In this document: piece by piece, positions 3,411 through 64,000 of the stretch
How positions within the stretch are numbered: the stretch's first letter is position 1
Layout of the letters: every line of letters starts with the position of its first letter
NCBI GenBank assembly: GCA_964016885.1
Contig: OZ024741.1
Coordinates: forward strand, 165,912,001-165,976,000
Direction of reading: 5' to 3'
Length of the DNA: 64,000 nt
From: Eledone cirrhosa
Taxonomy: Eukaryota
Program-made: the position numbers and the translations under genes
Notes under the pieces: model-generated
Databases searched by the model: none
What the model was told of the DNA's origin: nothing
What the model saw: only the letters and a program-made list of their open reading frames with translations

Positions 3411-3470
3411 ATTTTATCTGATGAGAGCGTACCAAAGTTTTTGGTACCCTTGAAATATATATAATAAAAT
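3411..3470 (+). ncRNA. Type I hammerhead ribozyme (family A)
   Basis: ATTTTAT-CTGATGA-stem II (GTACCA/TGGTAC)-GAAA-TATATA-TA-ATAAAAT; palindromic minimal stem III. Confidence 0.75.
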
Positions 3471-9089: not shown

Positions 9090-9165
9090 GCTGTCTGAAG
9101 AGAGCATGGCAGTAGCTTCTACGCTGAATTGCGTAGACAATGTCGTCCTCGAAATCTTCTAAACT
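9090..9165 (+). ncRNA. Degenerate long-stem-II hammerhead (relative of 48979-49066)
   Basis: GCTGT-CTGAAGA-GAG..ATGGCA..TCTACGC/GCGTAGA..TGTCGT..CTC-GAAA; 3' side of stems III and I decayed. Confidence 0.4.
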
Positions 9166-26936: not shown

Positions 26937-27582
<646 letters not shown>

Positions 27583-27642
27583 ATACTTGGGGAGGGTCTT
27601 ATTTGTGTAATAATATTGCCAGAATTAATAACAGTACACACT

Positions 27643-27682
27643 CAAAGTTCTTTCGTTGAACATCTGCAACATCGTCAGTGGT
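27643..27682 (-). ncRNA. Hammerhead in the 3' pLTR, 3' arm truncated
   Basis: RC: CA-CTGACGA-T-GTTG..CAAC-GAAA-GAAC-TT-TG. Confidence 0.55.
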
Positions 27683-27992
27683 GCTATTATGTTTCCTTCC
27701 GTTGTATTGTATGCCTACGCCATCTATATTGAGTCTATTTATTTATTTATTTATTTTTTTTTTTTTTTTTTTTTGTCTTCTCTGCGCATGTGTTTGCGTG
27801 TGTGTATAGTGTTTTGTTTGATGTGTGTTCGTGTTTGGGTGACTGTGTATTGGTTATTGTATTCTATCTTAGTTTACTAGTGTGTGTTTATATGCGTTTT
27901 TTGTTATTGTGCTTGTGTATTTATTTATTTATTTATTTATTTATACTTCTCTTAGGTCAGTGTTGTTTGTTTGGGTGTTGTTGTTATTCCAT

Positions 27993-30900
27993 TCATTTTT
28001 TTCTGTTTAGCCTTGGCCTTCTAAGTTCTATTTCGCTGGCCTCTCTGATTTGCCTATCTGCTGGGTCATTTCTATGTTTAGATATTCTAATTTCTATGTT
28101 GTCTATGTTACCGTCGTGTTGTTGTCTGGCATGTTCGTATAGTACTGAACCGTTTTTTCGTCCTTTTAGTTCCCCCCAGTGTTGGTCTATCCTTTCACCT
28201 ATGCTGCGAGCTGTCTCGCCTATGTATGTTGTTGTCATGTTTCTGCAAGTACCCTCTGTACATCTTATGCTATAGACTACGTTTCTAGTTTTACAGTTTA
28301 TCCGGGGGTTTACTTTACATATAATACATTTCCTATTAGTACAGTGGGTTTTCTTAAAAGGGTAGGTTTTGCTGATCAGAGATTTTATGGTGGTTCCTGG
28401 CTTCTCTACCACCTTAATCTTTAAGTGGGTCTTTTTCAGGGCCTTTCTACACTGGTTAGCTAATTTCTCTCCAGGGGTAGCGTCCACAAACATGACACTC
28501 TGGTATCTCTGGTTGTCGTACCATGAGGTGGCTTTCCCTATCTTATGTCTAGTCCTTACTAAGCTACTCCATGATTTGCTCCTGTATAATGGGCAAATTC
28601 CTTTCATGTCCAGTTCTATGAGGGTCTTATACTTCTCCGCGGCTCCTTCGTATACTCTGATTCTGTCTCTTTGGTTGTAGCCAGAGAACTGCGTGCGGTT
28701 GATGAAGTGTTGGATGTGTCTTTCCATTTCTGTTGGGTCGCACATGCGGGACACGTTCTTCATCACTCGTACCAAGTCTGCGATCAGAATATTAAACTTA
28801 GCACTACTGGCCATTGCTGAGACTTTGAGTATCAGGTATTTGGAGGCCATGGGTTTAGCATAGTGTGAGTGGAGAATTTGGGCTCTCTCGTCTATAGTGT
28901 TAATCCAGAGTACCGGGTCTAATACAGGTAGTCTATTGTTAGGGTGTTTGGAAGGGTAGTCGATAGTTACAGTTATACTCTGGTGTATGGAATTAGCTAT
29001 CTGCTGGATGCTTTCCATTGTGCTACGTTCTAAATCGAACTTGTTAGTACTCTCTTGTGGGGATGTCCTTATTACTATATTGATGTCGTCTGCGTAACGA
29101 GAGTACATGATGATGTCTATGGAGCTCTCATCAAGGAGATCTTTGAGTCTCCTTTCCCACCATACCATAAAAAGGTTGGCAAACGTCACCAGCTATGCTG
29201 ACGCCAATGGCTGCTCCCTCATTTTGGGTGTAGATTTTCTCGTTGAATTTGAATATGTGGCCCTTGAGGGTAGTTTTGATACTAGCCCCTATTGCATGTG
29301 CGACCATTTTTATTACCTGATCATTGTTTTGGGGGATCCGTATAGCTTTAGTCCACCCAATCCACCTTCCCATGGGAGTCTTTTTTGCCATTGAGGTTAT
29401 GGTGGGGGGGTCTACCTCTTATGGGTCTACTGGGGCAGAAACGTCTAAGGTCATGGCTGTCTAGGTAGTCAGTGTCATAGGTATGTCTAAGTAGGAGACC
29501 CAGTTCGTCTGTGTCGACGTCGCAGAACTCCACCTTACTCTCAATGATCATCTCCACACATTTTTCCACAGCAAAATCAATGTTAATGGATGGGTACAGT
29601 GATACCACATTCATACTGCCTATTATGCAGTTGGATAGGTTCCTGTTTTTGTTGCACTCACTGATTCTGCTGAGGAGGACCTCTGTACTGTCACATACAT
29701 CTGGGACATCTTATTATGGGGCGTATAACCATTGAGAGGAAGTAGGAGATCCTGTAGTTGCTAGCTATATTTGCTCCGCATACAGGTCTTGTTGGTGGTC
29801 CTGTTGTCGGGTCGTCGACTGTCTTGTGGTCTTTGCGGAGCCCATACAAGGGTGGTATGCCATTGTTAGACGCCTGGAAGTTGTTGGCAGTGCGTCTGCT
29901 TGGCTTTAGGATGTCGGTCCACATCATCATGTGAGTGTTGAGGATTTTCTCTCTCCCATCATGTATTTGCTGTGCAATTTCGCTCGTGTTGGTGATGTAG
30001 GGTTGCATAGCCTTGATGTAGTTCGGCATGCTGTCTATTGACATACTACCAGACTTATCCGTGGGTAGACACACTACCTCACCATCCCTTGTGCGTTGCT
30101 TGAGGCTAACCAAGCCTTCTACAGGTTTCCTCCTAAGTTGTTGGGCCTCTGGTCTGCTCTGTCTCTTAGTATATCGGTCTACTATTTGTCTAATCTTATT
30201 TCTAGCTATGGTGAACTGTGCCTCTGTCTCGTCATCTATTTGTTGTGGTATGCAAACCCTTTTATTAAAGGGTAACCTCGTAGGATAGATATTACCCATC
30301 TTATATGTTTTGTCAGCTGGGTTGAAGAATAGTTTCTCTAAGGGGATGTCATTATATCTATCGTCATAGTTGTGAGTGTTGCTATTATTGTTATTATGGT
30401 GGTTGTTGTTGTTCCTATCATTAGCACTATTATTATTGTTATGGTTGCTAGATGTATTGTTGCTGTGATTGTTAGATGTATTGTTGTTGTTTTCTCCACC
30501 GTTATTGTTGTTGTTACTGTTATTTCTACCATTGTGGTTGTTACTTTTATTATGTTTCTTGTTATGTTATTATGTTGCTACATATATTATTTCTATTATT
30601 ACCACTGTGGTTGTTGTTGTTACTCGTATTGTTATCATTATTATTACTGTGGTCGCTGCTGCTGTGTCTATCGTTAATGTTTCTATTATTATTATTATTA
30701 TTGTGGTTGTTGTTGTTGTTGTTGTTCTGTCTATCGTTAATATTATTACCATTATTATTATTACAATTTCTCACTCTCCTGTTATTGTTATGACTATTAC
30801 TATTATAGCTATTATTTCTATACTCAGAGTTATTGTTTATATTACTACTATCGTTATTATTGTTGTTGCTGTCCGTATAGTTGTTGTTGTTGTTTACTTT

Positions 30901-31609
30901 TGCATTCCAACGTATTCTTGTGAAACACTTTTCCAGCTCTTTTTGTAGATAGCAAATTTTGGTGGTAGCTGCAGGATTTGTTGTTCTTGTTCACTGATTA
31001 AAGTGTTCCTATAAATATTTACTGTGTGGTCATTGGTAAATTCTTCCGGTAGTTCTACATCAGTCATCGGATATTGTTGATGTTATCTGGGTATTTTTGT
31101 GAATATTCTATTTTTCTTTTTTCTAGTTTTTCTTATTCATCCATTCTAATTTCTTATTGAAATGCCTATTGCATTCGTGTTTTGGCGTATTTCGTTTCAC
31201 GTCGGATGACGCTCATGAAGTCATCCCTTTCGTTTGGTGTGGTGAGATTTCGGACTTCCTTACCGTTAATGCGTTTCTGTCTGTAAAGTTCGTTAACTTT
31301 TGTGTATGTTGTTCTTTTCATATTAACTGTTATTGTGTGTTTTAGTCGTTCAGCTTGTGTTTTGTTCAATAATAAATTATTTGCTTGTTTTGATATGTTT
31401 GTTGTGTATGTTTTGGAGGAAACACAGTGTTTTAAGAAGCGGATTTGTTCTGTTGTTATTGTAGTTCTTATATAACAGAAAACAGTGTCTTTCAATACCC
31501 TTTCAGCTTGGCACAAGCTAATGCCATAACAGCGATGAATTAGTTTTGCGAGGTTTTTGATATGAAATCGTGTGTCGAAACAAATATTGTTATACTTGGG
31601 GAGGGTCAT
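27993..31609 (-). pseudogene. Frameshifted Penelope polyprotein: N-terminal domain, Asn-rich linker, RT, C-terminal GIY-YIG endonuclease
   Basis: Fragments: PTDKSG, PPLYGLRKDHK..PPTRPV, MNVVSLYPSI, QNEGAAIG, YSRYADDI, NVVYSIRC..YIGETARSIGERIDQH; several frameshifts. Confidence 0.9.
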
Positions 31610-31762
31610 ATTTGTGTAATAATATTGCCAGAATTAACACACTCACTGTTTGGTTGGTTTTCGCTTCTGTGTCGGTTAATTTAATTTATTCGGTCCTCAA
31701 TGTTATCATTGACTGACCAACGGTCTAAAATACAGATACAATATAGACACAAACACATATAT

Positions 31763-31816
31763 ATAGTCTAACAAAGTTCTTTCGTTGCACATCTGCAACA
31801 TCGTCAGTGGTGCTAT
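31763..31816 (-). ncRNA. Minimal hammerhead in the 5' pLTR
   Basis: RC: ATAG-CAC-CA-CTGACGA-T-GTTGCA-GATG-TGCAAC-GAAA-GAAC-TT-TG..CTAT; perfect 6-bp stem II, weak stems I and III. Confidence 0.65.
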
Positions 31817-32634
31817 TATGTTTCCTCCCGTTGTATTGTATGCCTACGCCATCTTTATTTAGTCTGTTTATTTATTTATTTATTTTTTTTTTTGTCTTCT
31901 CTGCGCATGCGTTTGCGTGTGTGTATAGTGTTTTGTTTGATGTGTGTTCGTGTTTGGGTGACTGTGTATTGGTTATTGTATTCTATCTTAGTTTACTAGT
32001 GTGTGTTTATATGTGTTTGTTGTTATTGTGCTTGTGTATTTATTTATTTATTTATTTATACTTCCCTTAGGTCAGTGTTGTTTGTTTGGGTGTTTTTGTT
32101 ATTCCATTCATTTTTTTTTCTGTTTAGCCTTGGCCTTCTAAGTTCTATTTCGCTGGCCTCTCTGATTTGCCTATCTGCTGGGTCATTTCTATGTTTAGAT
32201 ATTCTAATTTCTATGTTGTCTATGTTACCGTCGTGTTGTTGTCTGGCATGTTCGTATAGTACTGAACCGTTTTTTCGTCCTTTTAGTTCCCCCCAGTGTT
32301 GGTCTATCCTTTCACCTATGTTGCGAGCTGTCTCGCCTATGTATGTTGTTGTCATGTTTCTGCAAGTACCCCTGTACATCTTATGCTATAGACTACGTTT
32401 CTAGTTTTACAGTTTATCCGGGCGTTTACTTTACATATAATACATTTCCTATTAGTACAGTGGGTTTTCTTAAAAGGGTAGGTTTTGCTGATCAGAGATT
32501 TTATGGTGGTTTCTGGCTTTTCTACCACCTTAATTTTTAAGTGGGTCTTTCTCAGGGCCTTTCTACACTGGTTAGCTAATTTCCCTCCAGGAGTAGCGTC
32601 CACAATATATATATATATATATATATATGTTGGC

Positions 32635-32678
<44 letters not shown>

Positions 32679-32991
32679 TATAATAGATATATGATAAAAT
32701 AATATATATATATAATTATTATATATATAATAATATATATATAAAATTTGCTCCGAAAGAATTGCATGTGTCCGAAGGAACCTGTAGCCGTAGAATCAGC
32801 CGGATCCATACAGTCATCATGTCTCGAGCTACCTACCGGCGAAACAATTGTAACACGCAATAAACTGAGTCGAGATGCATCACTGATTTTTCGTTTTTTT
32901 ATACTATTCACACTCTGCTCTGTAAGAATATTGAGTGCTAATTTTGGCATACCGCCTATGGAAGCACCATAGCTACCATTATACACACGTA

Positions 32992-33046
<55 letters not shown>

Positions 33047-33050
<4 letters not shown>

Positions 33051-33920
33051 CCGTCCTAACCACCATCCTAAACCTTGTTTTTAATAATCACACAGTTCCT
33101 TTCGTTTCATAACTTTTTGTATTTACCGCTGTGATTCTACCTGCTTTGGTCCATCTGTATTCCCTCCACACTTTCGCATCGACCCTCGCTTCTCTCTTCC
33201 CTTCTTCTCCTGACTCGTTTTTTTCTTCTCTCCCTCTCACTCTCTATCCATCCGTTCGGTTTTGATTGTTGACATGTTTACACGTGCCGTGGTGGCCTCT
33301 CTGTTCGCAATCTTTGCGGCACGTTTTTACCACCGTCGTAAAAAAAACCCTTCTGGATTATCTCTCTTTCCATTCTCCTCACTTCTGGTTGCCCGTGTCT
33401 CTCTCACTTTCTCCTTTCTATGTGAGAGGCAGCACGATTATACCAGCTCTGAGTCGTAGCTGACCACCAGGCTAAAGTCTCCCAGGTTGGCCATAACTTA
33501 CTTTCCCGATTTTTCCACGGTTACTTTTTTGCATGTTTCTTTCACCTGTGACTTCCCACGATGGGATCTGTATACTTTTTTCTCCTATTCCTTTCCTATT
33601 TTTTCCCCTTTTCCCTTCGCCCTTTCTTCCTCTCTCCTCATCTCCACCCCTGTTCTTCCTCCTTTCCTTCTCTTTCCTTTTCTCCCCTTTTTTTCTCATT
33701 TTCTCTCTCCTTTTCCACCTGGCCTTTTGATTAATAAAAGGCCTCGGGCGTACCCGAACTACACCGATGTCCTGTAATTCAGCGCCGAAACATCGGTTCG
33801 GGAAACATTTACAGCTGACGATGGAAACTCCTATCTTCCTTTCTCCTCTTATTCCGTCCTAACCACCATCCTAAACCTTGTTTTTAGTAACCACACAGCT
33901 CCTTTCGTTTCATAACTCTT

Positions 33921-33922
<2 letters not shown>
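33047..33922 (+). mobile_element. Non-coding ~803-nt-period element with ~70-bp terminal direct repeat, inserted in (TA)n; carries the reordered hammerhead-like motif
   Basis: 33049-33119 repeats at 33852-33922; 5'-truncated second copy at 48131-48695. Confidence 0.8.
33711..33827 (+). ncRNA. Non-canonically ordered (NUH, GAAA, CUGACGA) hammerhead-like RNA
   Basis: ACCGATGT-C-CTGTAA..GCGCC-GAA-ACATCGGT..TTACAG-CTGACGA-TGGAAA; see findings. Confidence 0.65.
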
Positions 33923-33977
<55 letters not shown>

Positions 33978-41938: not shown

Positions 41939-42163
41939 GGATTGAGGAAGGCGAGGCTGTGTGGTTACTGATAACGAGTGTTAGAAGGTAAGGCGACACC
42001 AACTTTTATCTATCAACATGGCTTGTTGATAGATAAAAGGCTATGGGCGCGCTATGGATAGATGTTCTGTTTATAATGCGCCGAAACATCCATGATCCGT
42101 AGTAAACAGCTGACGAAGGGAAACTTCCATCTCGTGTTTGTGCCGCCTTACCTTCTAACACCC
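41939..42163 (+). mobile_element. Short (TA)n-flanked element with inverted 5' segment, carrying the reordered hammerhead-like motif (42046-42123)
   Basis: 41978-41998 is inverse to 42141-42161; 16-bp hairpin 42003-42039; GATGT-T-CTGTTTA..GCGCC-GAA-ACATC..TAAACAG-CTGACGA. Confidence 0.7.
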
Positions 42164-42223: not shown

Positions 42224-42521
42224 GAGAAGAATGAATACTGCGTGGTTGCACATGGGTTACATATGAAAAAAATAGTCCTTCATCAGTGATTTTCCAACCT
42301 TCATTGGTATTTCATCGCTTTAAAAATCATATACCTCCAGTTGGTGCGAGCAATAGCTAAATAAAGCTATTGGGACAAGTAAATCGCGTAAAGCGAGCGA
42401 GACAAGTAAACAAACATAGAAGGATAGCAACGCAAAGATAGGAAAAAACAAGCCCACGGGAGTCCGATCAGCTTAAGCTGTGTGGATTTCATGAGCGAGA
42501 GACAACAGACCGTGCGACGCA
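42217..42521 (-). mobile_element. (TA)n-flanked element carrying the reordered hammerhead-like motif (42275-42376); truncated copy at 56308-56393
   Basis: RC: GTCC-hairpin-TCGC-A-CCAACT-GGA-GGTAT-A-TGATTTT..GCGA-T-GAA-ATACC..GGTTGG-AAAATCA-CTGATGA-A-GGAC. Confidence 0.7.
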
Positions 42522-44809: not shown

Positions 44810-44847
<38 letters not shown>

Positions 44848-45212
44848 TAACAGATTAAAGTTTAAGCAAAGAATCGCTGCTTTCACCCTTAACGGGATCT
44901 TCTGAAACTAACAAAGTCAATCTGTAAACGCAGAACTGGATATTTCAAAAAACGTTGCAACCGGAGGAGGACAGGAAGACGATACTTTGGTTCGTGGAAA
45001 CGTTCGCTGGCGAAGAACGGGAAAAAACGAATAATACGTCATTAATAGGAGTGGTGAAAAACATTTACGCGCAAAGACAGAACCACGTTTATGGTATAAA
45101 AGAGGTCGTAGACTAATGTTCTATTAGGTGGTGCATAGAGACGTTCTCTGGCAATGAACGAAAAAACGAAGATAATACGTCATATGTGGAGCGTGGAGAA
45201 CAATAGCACACT

Positions 45213-45657
45213 AACTGTAATTGTAGGAATCGGGCTGATTGCCCCCTATCCGGGAAATGCCTCTCTAGTAACATTGTCTACAAATGTAAGGTTGTAACAT
45301 CCACGTCCCGAAGGGCCTACATAGGGTTAACCGCCAATAGTTTCAAGCAGCGTCTTTACATGCATACCCATTCTTTTCGTTACCCTCTAAGAAGGAATTT
45401 GACGTCACTTTCAGCTTATATCTGGAGTCTAAAAGACAACCACACCTAATATAAGTTACACTGGGAGATCCTAGCTAGGGCTAGATCGTATAACGGAAAT
45501 AAAAGACCATGTGACCTCTGCGCCGCTGAGGCCCTGGAAATACTCTACGCCGCAGACCACATCTTAAACAAAAAATCTGAGGCAATTTCGGCTTGTAAAC
45601 ATAAATTGCACAAAACTTTCCTGTATTACAGCCCCACGTTATACCCTAACGGATAGT
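45213..45657 (+). pseudogene. Penelope GIY-YIG endonuclease remnant (absent from the ORF track)
   Basis: Manual translation NCNCRNRADCPLSGKCLSSNIVYKCKV..AYIGLTANSFKQRLYMH..SF..TSLSAYIWSLKD(stop)..WEILARA..CDLCAAE..LNKKSE..SACKH. Confidence 0.85.
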
Positions 45658-46564
45658 ACGATCTATACGTGGATATTTTACGTCTTGATGTGGGAGCTAA
45701 GTATATGTTTTGTTTATTCCTTTACTTATTTGCATAGGTAAGTATATACTACCCGTATGTTTTGTGAAGGTACGTATACCTTCTCGTACGTATATTTGAT
45801 TGCTATGGCGTATAATTTTATATATTCTGGTACATAGGGTTTGGCTATGTGTATACGGGAGTTTTTGCGTCTGTGTGATTATGTAGGTTCGTACGTATGG
45901 TGGGTGTGTGTATATGTGTACTTCTTGTTTTAGTTGACTTACGTCTCCGAACATTCGTGTATTTATATGTACATATGTGTGTGCGCTTGTTATATACGTA
46001 TTTATTTGTTTATATACGTTTATATAATTATTTATTTATTTGTATACACGCATACACACACACACATATTTATATGTGCGTGGTTTTGTATACCTATGGT
46101 AAAGTTTTGCGTATGCTTGTGTATGTACGTTTTTATTTGCGTGTATGTATTTATTTATTACTTCTGTATTGTATTTATTTACTTTGTTCTTAACTCTGTA
46201 GCGGAGATTCATTCGGTCTCCTAGTTAGAATTTTAGTCTACGACTTCTGCTATACCATTTACGTGGTTTTGTCTTTGCGTGCTATTGTTCTCCACGCTCC
46301 ACATATGACGTATTATCTTCGTTTTTTCGTTCATTGCCAGAGAACGTCTCTATGCACCACCTAAGAGAACATTAGTCTACGACCTCTTTTATACCATAAA
46401 CGTGGTTCTGTCTTTGCGCGTAATTGTTTTTCACCGCTCCTATTAATGACGTATTATATTCGTTTTTTCCCGTTCTTTGCCCGCGAACGTCACCATGAAC
46501 CAAAGTATCGTCTTCCTGTCTTCCTCCGGTTGCAACGTTTTTTGAAATATCCAGTTCAGCGTTT

Positions 46565-46640
46565 ACAGATTGACTTTGTTAGTTTCAGAAGATCCCGTTA
46601 AGGGTGAAAGCAGCGATTCTTTGCTTAAACTTTAATCTGT
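46565..46640 (+). ncRNA. Type I hammerhead with CAGAAGA (U4A) core in the pLTR
   Basis: ACAGATTGA..AGTTT-CAGAAGA-T-CCC-GTTAA-GGG-T-GAAA-GCA..TGC-TT-AAACT-TTAATCTGT. Confidence 0.7.
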
Positions 46641-46738
46641 TATTTTAATAAATATTTGCTCTACGGTTCTTATATATTTGATATATATTTATCCTTATCG
46701 AGCCCTCTTTGGATTTTAGTCTTCAAATTTATTATTAT

Positions 46739-47965: not shown

Positions 47966-48130
47966 TCCTGATAAACATTGATGGTCGAATAAATTAACTA
48001 TGGTGATATAAAAGATGCAGAAGCTAAAACCAACCAAACAGTGAGTGTGTTCTGTTATTATTTCTGGCAATATTATTACAACAATATCATCCTCCCCAAG
48101 TATAACAAAATGTATATATATATATATATA

Positions 48131-48690
48131 ACCCTTCTGGATTATCTCCCTTTCCCTTCCCCCCACTTCTGGTTGCCCGTGTCTCTCTCTCACTTTCTCC
48201 TGTCTATGTGAGAGGCAGCACGATTATACCAGCTCTGAGTCGTAGCTGACCACCAGGCTAAAGTCTCCCAGGTTGGCCACAACTTACTTTCCCGATTTTT
48301 CCACGGTTACTTGTTTGCGTGTTTCTTTCACCTGTGTCTTCCCACGATGGGATCTGCACACTTTTTTCTTCTATTGCTTTCCTATTTTTCCCCCTTCTTC
48401 CTCTCTCCTCATCCTTTTCCCCCCTGTTCTTCCTCCTTTCCCTCTCTTTCCTTTTCTCTCTCCCTTTGTTCTCTCTTTCCCTCTCCTTTTCCACCTGGCC
48501 CTTTGATTAATAAAAGGCCTCGGACGCACCCGCACTACACCGATGTCCTGTAATTCAGCGCCGAAACATCGGTTCGGGAAACATTTACAGCTGACGATGG
48601 AAACTCCTTTCTTCCTTTCTCCTCCTGTTTTGTCCTAACCACCATACTAAACCTTGTTTTTAGTAACCACACAGCTCCTTTCGTTTCATA

Positions 48691-48695
<5 letters not shown>
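48131..48695 (+). mobile_element. 5'-truncated copy of the 33047-33922 element; motif at 48488-48603
   Basis: High similarity to 33348-33915; (TA)n on both flanks. Confidence 0.85.
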
Positions 48696-48739
<44 letters not shown>

Positions 48740-56280: not shown

Positions 56281-56389
56281 TACTGTATATACATATATAT
56301 ATATATATAAAAAACATGAGAAGAAAGGTTACATATGATAAAAATAGTCCTTCATCAGTGATTTTCCAACCTTCATTGGTATTACATCG

Positions 56390-56460
<71 letters not shown>

Positions 56461-62900: not shown

Positions 62901-64000
62901 TAGTAGTGGTAGTGTAGTTGATGTGGTAGTGAAGACAGTGTGGTTGGGGTGGTAGTAGTGGTAGTGTAGTTGATGTGGTAATAGAGATAGTGTAGTTGAG
63001 GTGGTAGTAGAGATAGTGTAGTTGGGGTGGTAGTACTGGCAGCGTAGTTGGGGTGGTAGTAGTGGTAGTGTAGTTGATGTGGTAGTGAAGACAGTGTGGT
63101 TGGGGTGGTAGTAGTGGTAGTGTAGTTGATGTGGTAGTGAAGACAGTGTGGTTGGGGTGGTAGTAGTGGTAGTGTAGTTGATGTGGTAGTGAAGACAGTG
63201 TGGTTGGGGTGGTAGTAGTGGTAGTGTAGTTGATGTGGTAGTGAAGACAGTGTGGGTGAGGTGGTAGTAGTGGTAGTGTAGTTGATGTGGTAGTGAAGAC
63301 AGTGCGGTTGGGGTGGTAGTAGTGGTAGTGTAGTTGATGTGATAGTGAAGACAGTGTGGTTGGGGTGGTAGTAGTGGTAGTGTAGTTGATGTGGTAGTGA
63401 AGACAGTGTGGTTGAGGTGGTAGTAGTGGTACTGTAGTTGATGTGGTAGTGAAGATAGTGTGGTTGTGGTGGTAGTAGTGTTAGTGTAGTTGATGTGGTA
63501 GTGAAGACAGTGTGGTTGGGGTGGTAGTAGTGGTAGTGTAGTTGATGTGGTAGTGAAGACAGTGTGGTTGGGGTGGTAGTAGTGGTAGTGTAGTTGATGT
63601 GGTAGTGAAGACAGTGTGGTTGGGGTGGTAGTGTAGTTGATGTGGTAGTGAAGACAGTGTGGGTGAGGTGGTAGTAGTGGTAGTGTAGTTGATGTGGTAG
63701 TGAAGACAGTGTGGTTGGGGTGGTAGTAGTGGTAGTGTAGTTGATGTGATAGTGAAGACAGTGTGGTTGGGGTGGTAGTAGTGGTAGTGTAGTTGATGTG
63801 GTAGTGAAGACAGTGTGGTTGAGGTGGTAGTAGTGGTAGTGTAGTTGATGTGGCAGTGAAGATAGTGTGGTTGTGGTGGTAGTAGTGTTAGTGTAGTTGA
63901 TGTAGTAGTGAAGACAGTGTGATTGAGGTGGTAGTAGTGGTAGTGTAGTTGATGTGGTAGTGAAGACAGTGTGATTGAGGTGGTAGTAGTGGTAGTGTAG
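59985..64000. repeat. 52-bp G/T-rich satellite, >4 kb, runs off the window end
   Basis: Unit GTGGTAGTGAAGACAGTGTGGTTGGGGTGGTAGTAGTGGTAGTGTAGTTGAT (60081 to 60133). Confidence 0.97.

Follow-up and report, generated by a model that had tools for sequence, protein, structure and literature searches.

The 64,000-nucleotide (nt) stretch of the Eledone cirrhosa genome analysed here (contig OZ024741.1; the window, in whose numbering all positions are given) carries at 33047–33922 of the forward strand a non-coding element that contains the parts of a reordered hammerhead ribozyme. The element consists of an 803-nt unit extended by a terminal redundancy of 74–77 nt, so that the total insertion is 876 nt long and has partial-tandem ends like those with pseudo-long terminal repeats (pLTRs). 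The 5′ copy of the redundancy (33049–33119) is 93% identical to the 3′ copy (33852–33922), and 72 of 77 positions agree between 33049–33125 and 33852–33928. The insertion is bordered by its (TA)n target on the left (32990–33046) and on the right (33923–33975). Its longest open reading frame (ORF) with an ATG start has 75 codons, whether the element is taken as linear or circularised, and a Pfam search with two reading frames of the element gave no match. The description in the initial annotation, an ORF-less unit of ~803 nt with ~70-bp redundancy inserted in (TA)n, was thus confirmed. A second, 5′-truncated copy is present at 48130–48696 (+), 14.8 kb away, and no tandem copy was found within the window.

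The strands of the ribozyme follow one another on the forward strand. The 5′ strand of stem V (33712–33717) can form six of six Watson–Crick pairs with 33822–33827 (mean pair probability 0.83), and it precedes the 8-bp hairpin VI (33721–33743; pair probability 0.99) and strand b (33747–33751), the 5′ strand of stem II, all of which can pair with 33782–33786 (5/5). These are followed by the 5′ strand of helix IV (33753–33759), which can form 5–7 bp with 33796–33802, and by a 5-nt bulge. Block S (33763–33771) comprises a strand of stem III and GUC (33769–33771), with the predicted cut after 33771, and is continued by strand d of stem I (33772–33777; 6/6 pairs with 33809–33814). Block G (33782–33802) contains strand b′, GAAA (33787–33790) and the 3′ strands of stem III and helix IV. 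The last segment (33809–33827) contains d′, CUGACGA (33815–33821) and the 3′ strand of stem V. The core-flanking stems I, II and III have 6, 5 and 6–8 bp. The insertion holds one ribozyme, which lies outside the terminal redundancy; the element ends 151 nt past the predicted cut.

A descriptor of the block order S-G-C, applied to both strands of the window, identified exactly four loci in three sequence families, with H17 at 33771 (+), 48547 (+), 42066 (+) and 42330 (−). As 200 block-wise dinucleotide shuffles gave only 0.04 loci per window, a chance match was rejected, and the proposal of a reordered hammerhead with this strand assignment was upheld. Family 1 comprises the 803-nt element and its second copy, whose ribozyme (48488–48603) has one mismatch each in stem II, helix IV and hairpin VI. 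The family 2 ribozyme (42003–42128, +) has 15, 6, 8, 5 and 7 bp in VI, II, IV, III and I, and a local hairpin is formed by its post-core strand, with no clear stem V. In family 3 (42275–42376, −), V, VI, IV, III and I have 4, 7, 6, 5 and 7 bp, and 4/5 pairs of stem II are formed in the favoured parse; a truncated copy without block S lies at 56327–56404 (−). Although their sequences differ, the three families can all form stems I–IV and VI, and families 1 and 3 also form V. The hammerhead core (CUGANGA, GAAA and NUH with A15.1–U16.1) is intact in 4/4 loci, and the distance from the predicted cut to the element end is 151, 149, 99 and 113 nt in the four loci. A stricter finder of the whole architecture recovered three of the four, missing the decayed copy at 48547. 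A plain type I, II or III fold was rejected, as no canonical descriptor matched at the element locus. Rfam models gave four matches there up to E 10, none of them a hammerhead, and among the 150 of 361 matches listed for the window only repeat-driven microRNA matches were present. Separately, we observed that 18-bp inverted arms (41978–41995 and 42144–42161) flank the family 2 ribozyme within a 230-nt insertion between TA runs.

The initial annotation had described strands c and e as one long hairpin, with strands NUH, d, b′ and GAA in its loop and with b and d′-CUGANGA emerging from its base. The hairpin, its loop contents and the 0–6-nt linkers were recovered, but it is not a single rod: it divides into helices III and IV, separated by a bulge or an asymmetric loop. 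Similarly, b and d′-CUGANGA do lie at the hairpin base, but the further closing helices V and VI had gone unremarked.

The block order in the window loci is that of type SGC, a non-circular permutation of the hammerhead defined by Eckert et al. 2023 (PMC10085705; statements on this and the other cited papers refer to the parts of them available to us). Stems I and II are connected by 4, 3 and 4 nt in the three families, as compared with ~3 nt in type SGC, and helix IV (5–8 bp) braces them. Helix IV, the distal half of the c+e hairpin, equals the "I" helix of type SGC and has the polarity of the SGC bracing helix for these stems, which makes the window RNA a molecule of the SGC/CSG class that appears to be opened at a new place. 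In type SGC, block C is continuous and stem II begins 1–2 nt past CUGANGA; this continuity is absent from the window families. The post-core strand offers 2, 2, 2 and 1 pairs for stem II in the four loci, and the upstream strand b offers 5, 6, 3 and 6. The post-core strand pairs instead with the strand 5′ of the hairpin that abuts b, forming a stem V of 6 bp in family 1 and of 4 bp in family 3. As the post-core strand pairs upstream and b supplies stem II, stem V and hairpin VI (8, 15 and 7 bp in families 1, 2 and 3) are inserted between A9 and 10.1. The two would probably stack on each other, forming a four-way junction where they cross the stack of II and III. Block C was presumed impossible to interrupt (PMC10085705), and a stem II made with strand b, with helices between A9 and 10.1, is new relative to published type SGC.

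To find relatives outside the window, we fetched 139 loci: 120 with a loose pattern from one of 64 parts of a metagenome collection and 19 viral loci with a coral-type pattern. The full split-core architecture occurred in 2/139 (L004 and L028), as compared with 1/1390 shuffles that kept the searched words; none of the 19 viral loci had it, and a family 1/2 pattern found no stretch in viral sequences. L004 (200–370, +) has a split-core ribozyme without hairpin VI but with a 10-bp stem V, adjoins an (ACAT)n run, and has a long stretch inserted at its III/IV joint, on the c side. L028 (285–425, −) is near the form seen in Naiads of Acropora (see below), its e strand offers two registers for one c strand (long III or long IV), and comparison by eye with the Acropora entries revealed paired changes in stems I and V; MAFFT could not align it to the window families.

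These loci bear on a very improbable alternative, namely that the RNA is a plain type SGC with a stem II of 1–2 bp made by the post-core strand, so that b, V and VI would be peripheral or inhibitory, or that it is an inactive relic. In families 1 and 2, b′ and a post-core W-G-G can indeed join in 2 bp, and Penelope hammerheads commonly carry an additional base following A9 (PMC4209133). In family 3, however, only 1 bp of this pairing is left. L004, L028 and families 1 and 3 give the post-core strand a separate partner, in a stem V of 4–10 bp, and let b and b′ form 4–6 bp. The mismatches of the second copy at 48130–48696 would suit a relic, but the intact core nucleotides in all window loci would not.

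Naiads, which are Penelope-like elements (PLEs) targeting (TA)n, are reported to lack canonical hammerheads (PMC8557442), although 10 "core" and 8 "half core" rows are flagged in that paper, one of the core rows not being a Naiad. Parsing the 54 published Naiad consensi by eye, not by computation, we found the split-core form in 9 (three Acropora, two Octopus and four unnamed entries, the latter in supplement parts 9, 12, 12 and 19) and type CSG in 7 (four named nematode and three unnamed entries, supplement parts 13–16), that is, permuted forms in 16/54. Only two natural CSG sequences are reported in PMC10085705. The CUGANGA-spelling passages were covered as 60/62, 23/23, 25/25 and places 6–35 of 43, with matches split between lines missed; names other than Naiad_Ovul were assigned by file order, and tentative passages of parts 8 and 17 were left uncounted. 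In the Naiad_Omin passages neither form was seen by eye. The window motifs resemble the Octopus Naiad ends, which would suit a cephalopod host.

The III/IV joint holds a bend module in all three window families. In family 3 a 3-nt bulge is followed by tandem G-A and A-G pairs, which is the kink-turn consensus, and the joint of Naiad_Ovul looks the same by eye. In family 2 the second of these pairs is A-U, which corresponds to the Kt-23 exception. Wherever the joint is of the kink-turn type (family 2, family 3, Naiad_Ovul), stem III has 5 bp and the other arm 8–9 pairs. In family 1, 13 bp are interrupted by a 5-nt bulge, and one Naiad of supplement part 12 is similar.

Taken together, these observations lead us to propose, with moderate confidence, that the ribozyme of the 803-nt element is a split-core variant of the permuted hammerheads, borne by what is likely a non-autonomous PLE of the Naiad type, presumably driven by a Naiad, and likely to cleave in cis after 33771. 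Stems I and II and helix IV would join in an upper three-way junction in the manner of type SGC. Helix IV would fold back on stem III at the bulge (family 1) or kink-turn (families 2 and 3), and a few pairs at the III/IV joint would open to allow the cis fold. The strand from A9 to 10.1 would be interrupted by the open stem V and hairpin VI, the RNA ends exiting through the core. The insertion is longer than one unit and spans an intact site, from which we infer that the template was a partial tandem, a multimer or a circle. The likely role of the ribozyme is the cutting of partial-tandem transcripts, which would fix the template's 5′ end or yield unit-length circles. An insertion in (TA)n with partial-tandem ends and no ORF has the form of a non-autonomous Naiad-type element, and the same architecture, at a similar position, can be read by eye in published Naiads, to whose 3′ ends the element may be homologous. 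It looks more like such an element than like the tandem retrozyme-like copies of the initial annotation. A tandem retrozyme was rejected, as the two copies within the window are separated by 14.8 kb and their ribozyme is not type I.

Several results speak against this proposal. Stem II is missing from the nested minimum-energy fold, and the stability of the 116-nt stretch does not exceed that of shuffled sequences (z −1.2). No natural break between A9 and 10.1 is reported active in the parts of the literature examined. The 803-nt element, as a family 1 member, is without a kink-turn, and in the Naiad of supplement part 19 the bulge at the joint is a single nucleotide. The link to Naiads consists in architecture and (TA)n targeting, not in an alignment, and in the bivalve Naiad passages no split-core motif was seen by eye. 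No Naiad ORF adjoins any element copy in the window, and the Penelope remnant at 27579–32605 (−) has a GIY-YIG motif after the reverse transcriptase, as in the kind with a C-terminal endonuclease. It thus falls outside the Naiads, is unlikely to be the driver, and was rejected as the evident partner. The most extensive objection is steric. We used a crude rigid model of A-form helices (groove widths checked; stem II, core and stem III as one straight helix), to which the distances below refer. With all helices intact, closure in cis was overstretched by 26–29 Å in family 1, 16–18 Å in family 2, 2–8 Å in family 3, 25 Å in L004, 40 Å in the part-19 Naiad and 11–26 Å in four further split-core Naiads. 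The values are 8–40 Å for most split-core cases, and strain is the rule across this set. A two-fold swapped dimer was free of strain in 4/4 cases. Moreover, the cis model prefers ~25 degrees at the joint, as compared with 50 for a kink-turn, and helix IV complementarity is retained in every family.

This modelling agrees with the steric difficulty that the initial annotation had foreseen for a loop reaching its own base. Its further hypothesis, that the hammerhead works only in trans, was not supported. According to this improbable reading, the hairpin loop of one copy docks into the base multiloop of another, so that only tandem or two-pLTR transcripts are cut. The systematic cis strain and the unstrained dimer would be as expected, and all families preserve helix IV, although in family 1 the cheapest way to close in cis melts it. 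Other Penelope hammerheads act as dimers with low activity, and need them (PMC4209133). In the main text of PMC10085705 "dimer" and "trans" are absent as whole words and no concentration test was seen, which leaves room for a dimer mode. However, the published SGC and CSG RNAs cut at the predicted site during transcription from single-copy templates, at 0.004–0.19 per min (PMC10085705), and the active SGC-1 and SGC-2 are overstretched in our model by 31 and 9 Å, that is, SGC-1 as strongly as family 1. Nevertheless, SGC-1 transcribed from a template with one copy is cleaved nearly in full, and the fits are one-phase (PMC10085705). The short SGC-1 retains ~6 bp in stem III, and its faster rate is therefore uninformative on strain. 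The authors of PMC10085705 had flagged the same steric puzzle: some of their SGC RNAs have no linker between the bracing helix and stem III, which the crystal structure places at a large distance from each other. Three of four CSG Naiads close in cis with a strain of at most 4 Å. Cis closure of the element was reached by opening 3–4 pairs of stem III, or by melting helix IV at 6.3 kcal/mol, with 11-nt linkers for a 48 Å span. Bend modules and recurring arm lengths (III ~5, IV ~8–9) would be needless for simple linear docking, the insertion carries a single ribozyme, outside its redundancy, and no tandem neighbour, and Naiad_Ovul is listed without a pLTR (PMC8557442). Our preference for cis cleavage is based on the single-copy cleavage of an SGC RNA under equal strain, on the bend and arm lengths that docking would not need, and on this lone ribozyme without a tandem neighbour. 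In this crude model, sterics neither prove nor exclude docking in trans.

An intermediate possibility, unlikely but of more weight, is that both modes operate: the monomer would cut weakly, since the III/IV joint must melt, and a second copy (by domain swap) or a protein would raise the rate, the candidates being the product of an element ORF or a kink-turn binder of the L7Ae family. The cost of 6–10 kcal/mol in melted pairs in cis, set against a dimer that keeps all helices, the kink-turn consensus in related families and the reported protein assistance of the Anolis Poseidon hammerhead (PMC11167929) agree with it. The missing kink-turn in family 1 and the protein-free cleavage of SGC RNAs (PMC10085705) do not. 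Lastly, it is improbable that Naiads across animals use a topology beyond the six permutations regarded as possible, in which dimer-only cutting counts element copies, published SGC RNAs acting as dimers too.

Among known systems, the cis-cleaving split-core reading finds its closest counterpart in the type-SGC/CSG hammerheads (PMC10085705), with the S-G-C order, the short stem I–II link, the bracing helix and its unexplained proximity to stem III in common. "Type-SGC" as a term occurs in a single paper in the literature searched. Naiad PLEs (Craig et al. 2021, PMC8557442) share (TA)n targeting, partial-tandem ends, a motif 100–150 nt from the 3′ end and, by eye, the architecture of the nine consensi including Naiad_Ovul, but they have the ORF that the 803-nt element lacks and are reported without a canonical hammerhead. 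MRC1-type Chlamys elements (PMC8557442) are likewise non-coding, with pLTR-like redundancy and presumed use of the ORF of a Penelope with an N-terminal endonuclease; however, they are algal, often head-to-tail multicopy, and no hammerhead is reported for them. Type I Penelope hammerheads and non-LTR (long terminal repeat) retrozymes (PMC4209133; bioRxiv 10.64898/2026.07.22.740005) also place a hammerhead near the end of a non-coding Penelope-derived unit. They differ in forming dimers through a palindromic stem III and tandem arrays, and bioRxiv 10.64898/2026.07.22.740005 describes type I tandem units only; stem III of the 803-nt element is long and non-palindromic. A Poseidon element primes internally, and its protein-assisted hammerhead is unneeded for insertion in vitro (PMC11167929). 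In the literature searched, neither helices inserted between A9 and 10.1 nor Naiads with permuted hammerheads were found to be described. Weinberg et al. 2015 is said to describe hammerheads with additional helices, which could bear on novelty. In the available parts of PMC3088659, PMC10162972, PMC6765202, PMC13725137 and bioRxiv 10.64898/2026.09.16.752053, no such hammerhead form was found.

Elsewhere in the window, hammerheads of the minimal type I, in the known dimer-forming version whose stem III is palindromic and 2 bp long, were observed at 27273 and 17967 (−), and further type I candidates with stems I of 7–10 bp at 3418 (+), 6757 (−), 46935 (+) and 24503 (+). A pair at 9095 and 48991 (+), 71% identical, is type II by eye; the type II descriptor did not recover it. 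An element at 44843–46647 is bounded by terminal inverted repeats of 369 bp that are 97% alike, and a satellite with a 26/52-nt period extends from 59825 to the window end at 64000.

The cis-or-dimer question becomes testable with an RNA of 130 nt. If the ribozyme is active, it would be a hammerhead whose ends leave via the catalytic core and in which one or two helices are inserted at a place where published alignments allow 1–2 nt, and in some families a kink-turn would be part of the hammerhead. Activity would also give the non-circular permutations their first genomic home and a likely job, with many natural type-CSG examples as compared with two known, and would explain the seeming lack of ribozymes in Naiads, which are dominant in many invertebrate genomes.
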